From Laetmonice hystrix (taxonomy: Eukaryota), in NCBI GenBank assembly GCA_965235115.1, contig OZ249436.1:11286001-11350000 (forward strand): a DNA stretch of 64,000 nt, read 5' to 3'. The position numbers were made by a program, and so were the translations under genes. Shown piece after piece: positions 30,972 through 42,900 of the stretch. The notes under the pieces are model-generated. The model saw nothing but the letters and a program-made list of their open reading frames with translations, made no database searches and had not been told where the DNA came from. Every line of letters begins with the position of its first letter. The stretch's first letter is position 1.

Positions 30972-33900
30972 CTGTAAAAGACATGCACAGACCGCCTGTC
31001 AAACATAGACCTGTGTTCTAGCCTATTGTGGTTATGTAGGTGAAGTATTTTGGATGGACAACAAACCGATGTACATTTATAAATAGGCCCTGGACAATAG
31101 AAGCCATTGAACCGTGACCCGACTCCGCCAATGCCCATGCACATGCACATATAACCATGCTGTTCCCCTCCAAATGACGTCACTGCATAACCTCTATAGG
31201 CCTAGGCTTGTCATACCAACGGCAAGGAGGGCCAAACTTTTGCCGGGTGGCAAACTTTAGCGTGATGTTAATGATGTAACCCCTGGCTCCAAGACGGATA
31301 TATGCTGTTCAATATTAATCTTTTGCACCAGCATATTTCTGACAAATCTATGATTGATAACTTGTAATTACAATTGCACACTGATTTTATGAGATTACAT
31401 GTATATTATAAATCCGTGAAAGGGCCCACAGTCCTGTGCATATAGACTGTCAATCACACTATGATATTAAGAAAGATTACAATGAAAGTCTATCGCACCA
31501 TCATGTGTGTCAGTATTATCGTCATCAAGGATTGGATGTCTATCAACTGTCGAGGATCCTAGATCGAGGTATTCCTGTTCAGAAGAGAATGAAGATATTT
31601 TGTGATGTTAGTTATTCCATGGAAAGCTTTTGTACAAATAGCAAGTAGATTCATGGTCACCATATCCTTGCATCCCACGTATACGTTTAATTCAGACATG
31701 ATAGTTTTCCTCTCTACATTATCCTCGATAACGGTATTATAAACTGTCATTGCTATTAATGTATACGTATATTAATCTTACATGTTATATACATCATGAC
31801 CAATCCATATAATATAACCACTCTGATTGTGTATTACCACGCCCATAGTTACTGCCACAGGCACTGCACTTTAAACTATCCTGTGCTGACAATCTCCAAT
31901 GTAGAACGTATCAGTTTTAGCAATCAGTCTGCTATCAATGCCCATAACGTATCAGTTATAGCAATCAGTCTGCTATCAATGCTCACAATGTTTTGCTTTA
32001 TCATAGCCTCCGTCGTATCGGCCAGTTGAGTGAATGTTGGTCTATCCGCAGGCAGCGTACGCCAACACCATGACATCACACGATACCTGCCTCAAACAAA
32101 TCACAGTCATCATTTATACAGGTCACAATGTTTTGTTTCCTTATTCATCCATATACACTTAGTACCTTATAACTTATGTGCAACTGGGCCCAAGGCATCG
32201 CTCGATATAATGAAACAAGTGAAGAAAAATTAGTGACCATTTTAAAATGAACTTCCTAAAGGCTTCTCGGCGCAGGATAAGTGGTGTGTTACATTACAGC
32301 TGAAATGAATTTATAATAACTATATCGATGGGGTTTCCGATACTAACTGTTATAATGCAATCAACACATAAAATATACATGTTATATATGTACATCTACA
32401 TGTCCGGCGGACAACACAAATTTATCGACAGTATTCTAGTAGGATGGAACATGAGGAGCTGTGGATTGGTGGCGAAGACATCAATGCTCACTTTATATAG
32501 GTGAGCGAGTTTCCAAAATGTTCAATTCTTTAGGCCCTTTACAACTCGAAAACTGAAAATATTCTCTCACACAATCACGGCGCCTACGTCGGGAGGTAAT
32601 CCTACTTGTGACGCAAGTTTACCATTTTAAAATGATCCATATCCCTAGCAAACTCAGATATAGTCCTCCCCCATGTTGTTGATAGAAATATTGCAAACAC
32701 ATAAACAGAAGATGACGTACAGTTGTTCAGAGCAGTTAACTGGTCTTTCCATGCGGTAGCCAGTCTTCAGGAGGTGGTAGAGCCGCTCGGGTGCCAGCCC
32801 AGGGTACGGCGTGGCACCTAGCAACAGTTTAATACATCATCTTTGACGACGTCCTATCTACAGTTCCCAATTTCATTTCAAATATTATCCAACTGCGATG
32901 AAGTGTGAGATTTAACGAGAAGATTGTAATTACCTAATGTAACGATCTCCCAGAGTGTAACTCCATAAGACCACCTGTAAATAAACCAGGTAACTCAGTA
33001 AATGACATAGGCAGACCACCTGTAAATAAACCAGGTAACTCAGTAAATGACATAGGCATGCAGACCACCTGTAAATAAACCAGGTAACTCAGTAAATGAC
33101 ATAGGCCCTATTATCGGACGTCTATATAGACGCTGGAATCAGAAATGTTAAAAGTGACGGAATCCTCAGGGCTGAATGAAACCGTAGCTGAGTGGCGTTA
33201 CACTGGTAGGTATAATTACTGCTAACTGTTAACAAGTCTGTAAATGACCGTTATAAGTGGCACGTACACATCACTTTTTGTTGTATACGTGTGTTCGTAT
33301 AACGACTCCGGAGCCATCCATTTCACGGGAATTCTTCCCTGTAACGAAGGCGAAAAATAAAACAAAAATCCGTTTTATGCAGATTGTCGTACATTGTAAT
33401 GATATCATCAGGGTGGTAAATTGTCGGCTTATTATAACATGGTTTTAGGTTAGTTAAAGTACGTTTAATGTAGACAATTTATGGTTTGGTTTATGTTTAT
33501 GTTTTAGTACATAAACTCATACACTGCTTATGTCCACACACCTTACTCTTCTTCGTGTACGTGTCCTCCTCGTAGATGTCACGTGACAGGCCGAAGTCGG
33601 ATATTTTTATTACTTTTCCAGCTGCCACTAGAACATTCCTCGCGGCGAGGTCACGATGAACAACCTGAAACCATTAGTTCTGTTCACCCAGAGTTTCTCT
33701 TCAGAGATTAACACGTTTTTGACCACATGTCTTCTCCAGTCTAATACTTATTAAACGGTTATCGTATTTTTAATTGTAAACCCACTATTATAAGGTGGTA
33801 ATGCCCTCGCAGAGATTAATATAGGAAGTGCCAAACGTTTGATTGGGCTATACCTTAAGGTTTCCGTCATCTTATACAGTGACTGTATTGTGAAGGTATA

Positions 33901-39900: not shown

Positions 39901-42900
39901 TGAGCATGGATACTTACCACAACTGTCTGTGACCGGTCGGTGAAGCTGAGACGGTATGAGCAAGGATACTTACCACACCTGTCTGTGACCGGTCGGTGAA
40001 GCTGAGACGGTATGAGCATGGATACTTACCACAACTGTCTGTGACCGGTCGGTGAAGCTGAGACGGTATGACGGTGACGTTAATTTTCACTGATTTAGTT
40101 TCACTCGGCCCGTTCACGAGTACGTCAAGGGTTAGTGTCTCGTTCTCCATGTCGATTAGCCGTTCTGCATGACGTACAAATACAGCGCCCTCTGTCGGCA
40201 TTATCTCGAACACTCCGTAATCGTTCACAAGACTGTAGTAAGTATTGGGAGACCGGGTCTTCATGGATGGAACAACCTGGAAACAACATAATCAGCACTG
40301 AATACTTATTGTTTCTGTTAATAAATGCTATGAGTTAAGGAAGTACGAAATCATGGATGGAACAACCTGGAAACAACATGTGACAGCACTGAATACTTAT
40401 TGTTTCTGTTAATAAACGCTATGAGTGAAAGAAGTAGGAAATCATGGATGGAACAACCTGGAAATAACATGTGGGAACATAATTCTACAAATCTTTTGGC
40501 ATTGGACGATTATTAAGCGCTGGAAACAAGGATTTGGCAACTTTTAGAACTGATTAGAAAGTTATAACTTTTAAGAAAACGAAGGGGGCGTATCCATGAT
40601 GACCGGCAACCGCCATACAGGCCGATTTATGAGATGGAATTGATTGCTTTAAACAAGAGGACTGCCAACTCTCACACAGATCTTGATATCAATACATGTT
40701 ACATGAAATCCTGCTCAGTTATAACCCCACGGTTAGGATCTGATACACTATCAACACTCGATAACCTGTGTATCGTGGAGCACCGACCCGAGGGGTGGCT
40801 CACCTACCTGGGTGTAGTTGGCCGCCGTGGAGAAGATGGTAATGTTGGACGGAACGGTGCGGTTCTCATTGGGTTTCACGATCAACTCATAGGAAATCAC
40901 TACCTATACAAAGAAAAGGAGCGAAAATAATCGTTTTTGTCGTATCATAGAAGAAATATTCTAGAAATTACCATACGCAGTAATCAAATAAATATTATTA
41001 TAACGTTATCTTTAGCCCCAATAAATTTACTTATAGATAAAATATATAAAAGAATGTTACCTCAGCAGATTGGTTATTTCCAGTTGTCGGAGGCCGATAA
41101 CCCTCATCCCGTAAGACAAGTTCCATTTGATACTTGTGTTTTGTCAGTTGAAATGATTTGGCATATTCGAGCCGAGCTGTAAATCAACATGAGTGAGCCC
41201 AGTCAGTGTGTAATCTGATCCAGAAAGTGGATTTTACAGAGTCGTTAAAAATTCAGGTTGGCGTTAACTACAATCAAAATCATTTTAGATTTGTTTTTAT
41301 TCACTCTTCTAGATGTTGTTAAATACCGAATCCGACTCGAGTTGTGCTGGTGAATACGCTTCATTCTGTGTGCAGCTACAAATCTGTATACTCACCGGAT
41401 AGGTACCACAGATCATCAGATATTGCATTCTGTGTGCAGCTATAGATCAGTATACTCACCGGATATGTACCACAGATCATCAGATATTGCATTCTGTGTG
41501 CAGCTATAAATCAGTATACTCACCGGATATGTACCACAGATCATCAGATATTGCATTCTGTGTGCAGCTACTCACCGGATATGTGCCACAGATCATCAGA
41601 TATTGCATTCTGTGTGCAGCTATACATCAGTATACTCACCGGATATGTACCACAGATCATCAGATATTGCATTCTGTGTGCAGCTATAAATCAGTATACT
41701 CACCGGATATGTACCACAGATCATCAGATATTGCATTCTGTGTGCAGCTACTCACCGGATATGTGCCACAGATCATCAGATATTGCATTCTGTGTGCAGC
41801 TATAAACCAGTATACTCACCGGATATGTACCACAGATCATCAGAATATTGCATTCTGTGTGCAGCTACTCACCGGATATGTACCACAGATCATCAGATAT
41901 TGCATTCTGTGTGCAGCTATAAATCAGTATACTCACCGGATATGTACCACAGATCATCAGATATTGCATTCTGTGTGCAGCTATAAATCAGTATACTCAC
42001 CGGATATGTACCACAGATCATCAGATATTGCATTCTGTGTGCAGCTATAAATCAGTATACTCACCGGATATGTACCACAGATCATCAGATATTACATTCT
42101 GTGTGCAGCTATAAATCTGTATACTCACCGGATATGTACCACAGATCATCAGATATTGCATTCTGTGTGCAGCTACTCACCGGATATGTGCCACAGATCA
42201 TCAGATATTGCATTCTGTGTGCAGCTATAAACCAGTATACCCACCGGATATGTACCACAGATCATCAGATATTGCATTCTGTGTGCAGTTATAATTCAGT
42301 ATACTCACCGGATATGTACCACAGATCATCAGATATTGCATTCTGTGTGCAGCTATAAACCAGTATACCCACCGGATATGTACCACAGATCATCAGATAT
42401 TGCATTCTGTGTGCAGTTATAATTCAGTATACTCACCGGATATGTACCACAGATCATCAGATATTGCATTCTGTGTGCAGCTATAAATCAGTATACTCAC
42501 CGGATATGTACCACAGATCATCAGATATTGCACCTATTTTCACGTGGGGCCTGAATTGGCCATCGCTGTCTCCTCGCAGGAAGGCACTAATCTTGTCCAT
42601 ATGTTCTCTACCGTCCGGATCGAAACATGCGATGGCGTTTGTCGGAGCGGGGCTTCCCTAACACACAATAAGGTACCGATATATTAGCTATATTAGGGAC
42701 AGAAATACGCCTTAGCTATAATCACATAATTTATTTTTATTTCCATTTTAATTTCTGTACGACCCATGTGCACAGTTCACCCATACTTATTAGGTCAAGT
42801 GACTGAGAAAAATTCCGTTATGATATAGCTGGTCTCACCGGCTGGCTCTCCATGTCTTCCTCTGTGAACGTAATGACCTGTCTGTTTGTACCGTCACAGT

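Follow-up and report, generated by a model that had tools for sequence, protein, structure and literature searches.

The Ret gene of Laetmonice hystrix carries seven tandem arrays at its exon-intron junctions, and these arrays are probably ordinary minisatellites of the kind called 'mirages' in amphioxus. The association between arrays and junctions is mostly a matter of geometry and purifying selection, with a possible leftover excess of 1.3-2-fold that these do not explain, and Ret is a striking yet largely ordinary example of a phenomenon that has already been named and published, which the first-pass annotation did not identify as such. The observed basis for this reading is the anatomy of the arrays, the frame kept via proximal splice sites, the expectation by chance, and the frequency of similar arrays in other genes of the same genome. 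Coordinates below refer to the window, the whole stretch of 64,000 nucleotides that was analysed.

Ret, a receptor tyrosine kinase gene, lies on the minus strand, and its modelled part (30637..43819) comprises 19 exons, from 43819 down to 30637, that encode the protein from cadherin-like domain 2 onwards, including the cysteine-rich, transmembrane and kinase regions, and end with the stop codon. Exon borders were set without recourse to the repeats, and intron phases match at every join. The spliced product is colinear with a Ret-family profile (27 full-length homologues; 932 bits), mammal Ret as a tblastn query matches the gene, and Pfam RET_CRD is found at E=8.6e-23, with the profile matches again colinear. 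Spliced via the proximal sites, the product shows no blocks extra or missing against its homologues except species-specific loops. Exon ends in the kinase part coincide with the ends of alignment blocks against mammal Ret, and the introns there presumably occupy the same positions as in human RET. One exon has two candidate ends: exon e could close at 42534 (TAG/GTGCAA, a slash marking the exon border) with phase unchanged, but 42501 is favoured by ~15 bits in the profile and by a donor much closer to consensus. Another Ret exon is probable upstream, near 49669-49815; for upstream exons, single ORFs gave no Pfam match and homologues no tblastn match at E<=1e-3. Arrays at 44414-44509 and 48837-48922, upstream of the model, were excluded from the junction test; the 32-bp unit at 44414 includes GAT/GTGAGT, and no frame-compatible exon was found there by eye. 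Searches with the CRD and transmembrane exons found no transcript-derived or annotated protein of the same species. Outside Ret, the window holds 85 ORFs of at least 75 aa, among which an ankyrin/SOCS-box ORF is the single clear gene.

TRF recovers all seven junction arrays at the places given by the first-pass annotation, as head-to-tail units of 36-91 bp in 1.9-34 copies. They are listed here with two further arrays, one inside an exon and one in mid-intron.

41362..42532, minus strand, 64-bp array in 19 copies, spanning the donor of exon e (42501-42657)
40261..40473, minus strand, 90/91-bp array in 2.4 copies, spanning the acceptor of exon h at 40276
39850..40071, minus strand, 56-bp array in 4 copies, spanning the donor of exon h (40030-40276)
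39422..39592, minus strand, 76-bp array in 2.3 copies, mid-intron between exons h and i
35834..37097, minus strand, 37-bp array in 34 copies, spanning the donor of exon k (37095-37366) and reaching 3 nt into the exon
34781..35081, minus strand, 36-bp array in 8.4 copies, running from intron +10 past the donor of exon m (35091)
34444..34527, minus strand, 27-bp array in 3.1 copies, 100% identical, entirely within kinase exon n (34385-34674)
32968..33106, minus strand, 45/49-bp array in 3 copies, spanning the acceptor of exon q (32934-32974)
31905..31982, minus strand, 41-bp duplication in 1.9 copies, running from intron +5 past the donor of exon s (31987)

All seven had been described as beginning exactly at a junction or straddling it; five do contain the junction, but two begin at intron +10 and +5, and their 36-bp and 41-bp units lack the authentic donors 35091 and 31987. 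The five spanning units hold a full splice site together with 3 to 42 nt of flanking exon, as described: the arrays include 32, 42 and 3 exon nt at the donors 42501, 40030 and 37095, and 16 and 7 at the acceptors 40276 and 32974. The 64-bp unit consists of the last 32 nt of exon e, the donor CCG/GTGAGT and 32 intron nt, and the 56-bp unit of the last 42 nt of exon h, the donor GTG/GTAAGT and ~10 intron nt. On the acceptor side, the 90/91-bp unit joins ttgtttccag/ to the first 16 nt of exon h, and the 45/49-bp unit joins tttatttacag/ to the first 7 nt of exon q. The 37-bp unit opens with CTG/GTAGGT and yields 30 donor copies including the authentic one, and its array enlarges the intron from ~254 nt to 1478 nt. 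The units are mutually unrelated: just 2 of 45 unit pairs exceed shuffles, with matches of 10 and 13 nt, and a shared repeat family for the seven was rejected. The arrays do all run into the intron, as first described, but this is a consequence of definition, because the copy adjoining the exon is always the one called authentic.

The five spanning arrays contain 54 counted decoy sites, and all 54 lead to a frameshift or a premature stop, in agreement with the first-pass annotation, which had every non-proximal copy as unproductive. Past the donor at 42501 there are 18 decoys, 16 with the identical 9-mer, and an in-frame stop precedes all of them; past 40030 there are three, all with the identical 9-mer (two frameshifts, one stop); past 37095 there are 29, 28 of them identical, and every one gives a frameshift or stop. 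Before the acceptor at 40276 both decoys run into a stop, and before 32974 one of two meets a stop and the other shifts the frame. Similarity to the authentic sites is high, with 47/50 donors identical over 9 nt and 4/4 acceptors showing at most one mismatch over 16 nt. By analogy with human F7 intron 7 and amphioxus genes, we infer that splicing uses the donor lying furthest 5' and the acceptor nearest the exon, and any use of a decoy would presumably produce a premature-stop transcript that is degraded.

Amphioxus mirages are described as tandem duplications of 10-160 bp across an intron/exon border, 5' or 3', that leave splicing undisturbed (PMC3087553, PMC3902484), and the genes reported to carry them include Adh3 (Canestro et al. 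2002), the globins BflGb6 and BflGb9 (Ebner et al. 2010, PMC3087553), troponin C and PGBD5 (PMC3902484). These reports present normal splicing, seen by RT-PCR or in cDNA, and length polymorphism as demonstrated, and describe many units as carrying AG/GT signals. The Ret arrays are likewise border-spanning minisatellites in an otherwise normal conserved gene: all seven have head-to-tail units within the 10-160 bp range (36-91 bp), and the unit spans the border in five (42501, 40030, 37095, 40276, 32974), whereas the two at 35091 and 31987 are plain intronic arrays beside a border. They differ in that the host is not a cephalochordate, that seven arrays sit in one gene, and that the arrays run to more copies, with up to 34 in Ret and 28 and 31 in other genes of the genome, against the 3 and 6 units reported for BflGb6 (PMC3087553). 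Regular splicing is predicted for Ret, where the frame and the Ret alignment stay intact via the proximal sites.

A second parallel is the 37-bp VNTR of human F7 intron 7, in which the first unit spans the border and mutants are reported to show that the most upstream donor alone is chosen (Borensztajn et al. 2006, PMC1557585). The Ret donor arrays share this layout, an authentic donor followed by identical pseudo-donors (16/18, 3/3 and 28/29), and the unit length of 37 bp is common to the VNTR and the array at 37095. Unlike F7, as that study describes it, Ret also has acceptor arrays, and its donor choice is predicted by analogy. Duplication of splice sites had further been put forward as a route to intron gain, and this link is a recognised one. 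Rogers reportedly proposed in 1989 that introns are gained through tandem duplication of an AGGT-containing segment. Potato RdRp is described as a case of intron gain by duplication (PMC4974935), and internal tandem repeats at exon-intron borders are described in human (PMC2812944). Ret resembles the model in that duplicated splice signals add donor/acceptor pairs within the gene, but it has no evident new intron or exon; we rejected the birth of new introns or exons by duplication, all decoys being unproductive and the frame passing via the proximal sites.

Why, then, do so many arrays meet a splice site? The first-pass annotation held that junctions occupy a small part of the region, which proved mistaken. 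Once every array is reduced to a single unit, 36 junctions fall within 6.9-7.0 kb of intron in the modelled part of Ret, where the median intron measures 286 nt. A random unit of 36-91 nt then touches a junction with probability 0.22-0.41, a high value that arises because the introns of Ret are short and its repeat units long. Against this null, 7 of 8 intronic arrays lie at junctions where 2.3-2.6 are expected (P about 0.001, in a gene picked post hoc); the sole exception is the 76-bp array, 437 nt from the donor and 959 nt from the acceptor. The association called non-random is therefore above chance in Ret, but the gene was chosen for looking striking, and what remains elsewhere is modest.

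Array ends had been proposed for comparison with a shuffled null, and this comparison, run on 180 other introns of the genome, gave a modest excess only. The introns were resolved from 208 exon pairs examined in 8 Pfam families (PF00122 gave no usable exon pairs for the sample), and 36 of them hold 53 arrays. Eighteen of the 53 come to within 10 nt of a junction; a pooled null predicts 10.2 (P=0.0065) and an own-intron null 13.75 (P=0.085). Junctions are spanned by 16 arrays, where the two nulls predict 7.8 (P=0.002) and 10.3 (P=0.024), respectively. The spanning arrays (7 at donors, 9 at acceptors) are found at 16 of 360 junctions, or 4.4%, spread over many chromosomes. Nine come from the first seven families, with 1-27 decoy sites apiece, and the seven from the dynein family were checked by eye. 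Two dynein genes are Ret-like, with 4/5 and 3/5 of their arrays at junctions. The sampled arrays are concentrated in few genes. Ret differs from this independent sample (Fisher P=0.006). In the literature searched, no study testing the ends of minisatellites against splice junctions genome-wide came up, although one may exist.

Coding exons point to the other half of the explanation. Across 33 fully defined internal exons (6,526 nt) there is no array, against 3.7 expected at the intronic rate, and the 27-bp array in Ret exon n is in frame, its three repeats of GQDTWVSAN falling in the kinase-insert loop; here the repeat process has reached an exon as well, with only an in-frame product kept. 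Both observations support the first-pass suggestion that selection filters duplications overlapping exons. In the mechanism that we propose, the genome would tandem-duplicate segments of 20-100 bp at a very high rate, many of them growing to tens of copies, and with native introns of about 250 nt many duplications would touch or cross an exon border through geometry alone. A founding duplication across the border would copy the splice site into every unit; the copy joined to the exon would stay in use, and the remaining copies would turn into intron sequence. The arrays that survive would be intronic arrays, cross-border arrays and, now and then, an in-frame array within a coding loop that tolerates it, because purifying selection would discard duplications that break the reading frame.

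Several results count against ordinary mirages as the whole account: the 7 of 8 Ret arrays at junctions, above geometry at P about 0.001, the difference between Ret and the independent sample, and the 16 spanning arrays in the independent sample against 7.8-10.3 expected (P 0.002-0.024). The same figures favour a mutational or expansion bias, in which the junction, its sequence or its chromatin nucleates duplications or aids their expansion or persistence. This bias also draws on arrays of at least 3 copies with units of at least 17 nt, a stratum set post hoc, for which the two nulls predict 5.2 or 8.4 spanning arrays and 14 of 31 are seen (P=1e-4 or 0.013), and on the depth of overlap: the spanning excess is confined to arrays that include 1-9 exon nt (9 of the 53, where chance gives 3.1; P=0.0026, the bin chosen post hoc among 7 tried), so that a purely uniform birth process is insufficient. 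We nevertheless think such a bias unlikely, since its effect is at most 1.3-2-fold, the own-intron result within 10 nt is not significant, the strata and bins were picked with the data in view, the arrays bunch in few genes, and a microhomology mechanism failed. In that mechanism the authentic site would match an intronic pseudo-site 15-100 nt in, and it was rejected on finding such matches rarer at junctions than in the intron interior (direct match of at least 7 nt in 8/258 junction windows vs 665/6,962 interior windows). Also rejected was 'edge retreat', in which coding constraint wears away older, deeper overlaps: of 11 arrays with a small overlap, 0 have an adjoining exon stretch more unit-like than random places. 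Mutation nucleated at junctions, one of the explanations first offered, may contribute, and its effect would be at most about 2-fold. It is conceivable, though we doubt it, that splice-site minisatellites are 1.5-2.7 times commoner than short introns and long units predict, with the surplus at 1-9 exon bases; equally open to doubt is the companion idea that the junction itself seeds, expands or protects the arrays, the cause of which may be DNA breakage or a stalled polymerase, coupled to splicing or to the edges of nucleosomes, or a shielding of the copy on the exon side.

Could the decoys instead be put to use? Under copy-number-tunable unproductive splicing, decoys would be used, their products degraded, and array length would set the dosage of Ret. 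All 54 decoys do give a frameshift or stop and most match the authentic site, but identity is expected anyway of young or homogenised arrays, and a frameshift or stop is the default when reading into an intron. Moreover, unrelated housekeeping and motor genes show a similar per-array rate, with nothing singling out Ret, and decoys are silent in the published cases; we regard this role as very improbable. More improbable still is that the arrays, or the number of copies in them, were created by the assembler. For the long arrays the number of copies does come from the assembly, and short-word contigs break within the 56-bp array; against this, exon h with its acceptor and the 91-bp array are covered, in just the arrangement seen in the window, by contigs from three runs of one sample, the arrays contain internal variants and higher-order periods (88-97% matches), and like structure occurs at 16 other junctions on many chromosomes. 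Contigs between the long arrays, from one sample, showed no joints, a result that is silent on copy number.

As a single locus, Ret adds little to what has been published on splice-site-duplicating repeats in amphioxus and human F7. The lasting value lies in the quantification: about one-third of intronic minisatellites touch a junction, most of this contact arising because introns are short and repeat units long, and duplicated junctions make up about 4% of those examined in conserved genes, some of them repeated over 25 times. These figures provide a baseline for judging later claims of 'splice-site-anchored repeats', above which a small and specific surplus remains, that of arrays including 1-9 exon bases. 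With 18 and 29 decoy donors behind two of its exons, nearly all of them matching the authentic 9-mer exactly, Ret would be a clean natural experiment on splice-site choice at the RNA level. Were the junction surplus to prove real, about 4% of conserved-gene junctions in this animal would carry up to 30 identical decoys, and the animal would be a natural test bed for the choice among identical splice sites and for intron growth.

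Ret, a minus-strand receptor tyrosine kinase gene, lies in a 627-Mb genome that is very rich in minisatellites, and arrays with 20-90-bp units occur all along the 64-kb window (TRF), which belongs to contig C1 of this genome (handle G000). Where do the exons of such a gene end? A profile built from 27 full-length homologues matches open frames that follow one another colinearly between about 49.8 and 31.9 kb; the kinase exons are 60-73% identical to mammal Ret, and one exon is a Pfam RET_CRD match (E=8.6e-23). Enumerating candidate donors and acceptors around each profile block gave a model of 19 exons, from 43819 to 30637 on the minus strand, in which intron phases agree at 18 of 18 introns and whose spliced translation aligns to profile positions 101-1067 with 932 bits. 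Because the phases match and the product aligns, the exon borders are set by reading frame and homology, independently of the repeats. The end of exon e is ambiguous (42534 or 42501, phase 1 in either case), with 42501 favoured as about 15 bits better in the profile and as having a donor, CCG|GTGAGT, far closer to consensus. On frame and homology only, the proximal sites are predicted to be those used in Ret; no RNA run covers this sequence, and searches with the CRD and transmembrane exons turned up no transcript-derived protein from the species.

TRF and the distances to these junctions place seven arrays at Ret exon borders where the first-pass annotation had put them. It had described the arrays as beginning at or straddling a junction, which holds for the five that contain one, but two start at intron +5 and +10.

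Arrays at Ret exon borders (window positions, minus strand); decoys are repeated splice-site copies other than the authentic exon-proximal site
Donor 42501: 64-bp array, 19 copies, including the donor and 32 exon nt; 18 decoys, 16 identical over 9 nt; an in-frame stop precedes all
Donor 40030: 56-bp array, 4 copies, including the donor and 42 exon nt; 3 decoys, 3 identical; 2 frameshift, 1 stop
Donor 37095: 37-bp array, 34 copies, first base 3 nt inside the exon; 29 decoys, 28 identical; every one frameshift or stop
Acceptor 40276: 91-bp array, 2.4 copies, including the acceptor and 16 exon nt; 2 decoys, with 0 and 1 mismatch in 16 nt; stop after both
Acceptor 32974: 45/49-bp array, 3 copies, including the acceptor and 7 exon nt; 2 decoys, both identical over 16 nt; 1 stop, 1 frameshift
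Donor 35091: 36-bp array from intron +10; junction not included
Donor 31987: 41-bp duplication from intron +5; junction not included

As had been claimed, every decoy in the five junction-containing arrays would be unproductive, giving a frameshift or stop, and the repeat units are mutually unrelated, with 2 of 45 unit pairs slightly exceeding their own shuffles. That the arrays always extend into the intron is also true, but follows from construction alone. The assembled sequence of exon h with its acceptor, and that of the 91-bp array, is borne out by contigs from three runs on a single sample; these contigs break in the 56-bp array and so give no copy numbers.

TRF reports 11 arrays between 30637 and 49956 (period at least 10, score at least 50). 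Two upstream arrays, at 44414 and 48837, where exon structure is unresolved, and the wholly exonic array at 34444-34527 were dropped, which left eight, seven of them no more than 10 nt from a junction and five spanning one. Each array was collapsed to one unit, and the unit was placed at random in viable positions. Collapsed Ret has 36 junctions per 6.9-7.0 kb of intron and a median intron of 286 nt, and a random 36-91-nt unit touches a junction with probability 0.22-0.41, so the premise that junctions occupy a small part of the region does not stand. The association itself is above chance, but far weaker than that premise implied, and its P values apply to a gene picked post hoc for its striking look. 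With a footprint of two units, P rises to 0.017 (within 10 nt) and 0.18 (spanning).

Observed and expected junction arrays
Ret, within 10 nt of a junction: 7 of 8 observed; 2.3 (pooled Ret introns) or 2.6 (own intron) expected; P ~0.001
Ret, spanning a junction: 5 of 8 observed; 1.9 expected; P 0.02
Sample, within 10 nt: 18 of 53 observed; pooled 10.2, P=0.0065; own-intron 13.75, P=0.085
Sample, spanning: 16 of 53 observed; pooled 7.8, P=0.002; own-intron 10.3, P=0.024

The independent sample came from exon-by-exon genome matches of eight Pfam families (tyrosine kinases, myosin heads, Ser/Thr kinases, CCT chaperonins, kinesins, aldehyde dehydrogenases, tyrosine phosphatases and dynein AAA1). 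Tight stretches were fetched around consecutive matches, exon pairs were taken if they adjoined in the profile with no more than 14 positions missing or shared, and a script chose the two splice sites on phase, an open frame, a simple score for the site, and the residue count. This resolved 180 introns from 208 pairs; the other 28 were discarded because the profile gap was too wide, the score was weak or the residues did not match, and these pairs hold two further junction arrays, one interior and two unclear in the first seven families and none in dynein, where all arrays at the loci fall within resolved introns. The 180 introns comprise 100,620 nt, or 81,583 nt once collapsed (median collapsed length 245 nt), and 36 of them contain 53 arrays.

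The pooled null is uniform over all collapsed introns; the own-intron null is uniform inside each array's own collapsed intron and tolerates regional variation in repeat activity. Arrays within 10 nt of a junction make up 34% (95% interval 22-48%). Those that span one (7 donors, 9 acceptors) hit 15 of the 180 introns and 16 of 360 junctions (4.4%); the nine from the first seven families bring 1-27 decoy sites apiece, and the seven from dynein were checked by eye. The shuffled-null comparison proposed with the original observation, run here on 180 introns, gives a modest excess, and proximity within 10 nt is not significant under the own-intron null. Two post hoc divisions localize the excess. 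Of the 31 arrays with three or more copies and a unit of 17 nt or longer, 14 span a junction where 5.2 or 8.4 would be expected (P=1e-4 or 0.013), and smaller arrays have no surplus (2 of 22, against 2.6 or 2.0). By edge position, the excess is confined to one of seven bins, in which arrays reach 1-9 nt into the exon (9 of 53 against 3.1; P=0.0026 under the own-intron null); deeper exon overlaps match expectation (7 against 7.5), as do intronic edges at 1-10 nt (2 against 3.1), 11-30 nt (4 against 6.2) and 31-60 nt (9 against 9.3).

Ret exceeds this background both in arrays near a junction (7/8 against 18/53, Fisher P=0.006) and in junctions spanned (5/36 against 4.4%, binomial P=0.02). It is not unique: two sampled dynein heavy-chain genes have five arrays each in the AAA1 region, with four (L139, G000:C18:27780390-27783510) and three (L149, G000:C13:1157790-1162650) at junctions, and one of the two reaches 31 copies of a 36-bp unit with the donor at the unit start. 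In a tyrosine kinase (L086+L026, G000:C8:31663180-31668647), an intron of 3,440 nt, about 125 nt when collapsed, is almost wholly a 35-bp unit x97 followed by a 41-bp unit x4.8 ending in the authentic acceptor. A kinesin (L110, G000:C3:20997710-20999900) has a donor-spanning array of a 45-bp unit (15 codons) with 10 decoy donors at in-frame offsets, which, unlike those of Ret, would leave the frame unchanged by offset alone. The family matches also include neighbouring exons in a dynein gene (G000:C6:15670526-15670636 and 15671728-15671838, both AAA_6 81-117) and in a myosin gene (G000:C1:61137740-61137835 and 61138273-61138380, Myosin_head 121-152 and 117-152); the two exons of each pair cover the same part of the profile and are probably mutually exclusive alternatives.

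Repeats also mark the rest of the window. Six large non-Ret arrays (1-2023, 7794-8294, 16253-17447, 55330-57026, 59925-61226 and 62190-64000; 20-52-bp units, 23-65 copies, about 8.5 kb in total) include several units with GTGAG-type donor-like motifs. A 950-bp tandem duplication (23903-24852 and 24981-25930, 100% identity) carries in each copy a 51-bp x3 array whose unit, read on the plus strand, includes the perfect donor-like sequence AAG|GTAAGT, with no exon assignable. It lies directly upstream of an ASB-like single open frame of 485 aa (22549-24003, minus strand) with ankyrin repeats and a C-terminal SOCS box, whose nearest database relative is 64% identical and unnamed. Two copies of a 2.2-kb element (4412-6626 and 12818-14984, about 93% alike, 8.4 kb apart), each with an internal (AG)n of about 290 nt and with 150-nt ends that are inverted, 86-90% complementary and built from 19-bp tandem units, look like a non-autonomous foldback-type DNA element.

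Most of the junction association is geometry: because introns are natively about 250 nt, units 20-90 nt and arrays very frequent, between a quarter and a third of the arrays are bound to meet a junction. The rest of the pattern is selection. The intronic rate predicts 3.7 arrays inside the sample's 33 fully defined internal exons, which contain none, and the lone wholly exonic Ret array (34444-34527, minus strand) is in frame, a perfect 27-bp x3.1 repeat of nine codons that places three identical copies of GQDTWVSAN in the kinase-insert loop; given the 100% identity between copies, it looks very recent. Beyond these, the data hint at a remaining 1.3-2-fold surplus of junction-spanning arrays that is not secure, because the nulls disagree on significance, the choice of strata and bins came after the data had been seen, and the arrays are clustered in a few genes. 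Such a surplus might have come from microhomology of the authentic site with a pseudo-site in the intron, yet this is rarer at junctions, with a direct match of at least 7 nt within 15-100 nt in 8 of 258 junction windows versus 665 of 6,962 interior windows (129 array-free introns). Erosion of older, deeper overlaps is likewise unsupported: the adjoining exon piece resembles the unit in 0 of 11 small-overlap arrays.

Tandemly duplicated intron/exon borders are described in amphioxus Adh3, globin, troponin C and PGBD5 as "mirages", minisatellites that reportedly leave splicing undisturbed and are proposed as a path to intron gain (PMC3087553; PMC3902484). In intron 7 of human F7, the first unit of a 37-bp VNTR lies across the exon border, and the experiments described there found the most upstream of the identical donors to be the sole one used (PMC1557585); there is also a survey of internal tandem repeats located at human exon-intron borders (PMC2812944). 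We found no genome-wide test of minisatellite ends against splice junctions in the literature, which is not proof of absence. The original observation is real and well described, and the Ret arrays belong to an already known type of repeat, here in a new host and at unusual density. Junction arrays are common in this genome and are largely accounted for by short introns, long units and purifying selection; the small unexplained surplus at the junction itself merits a proper genome-wide test.
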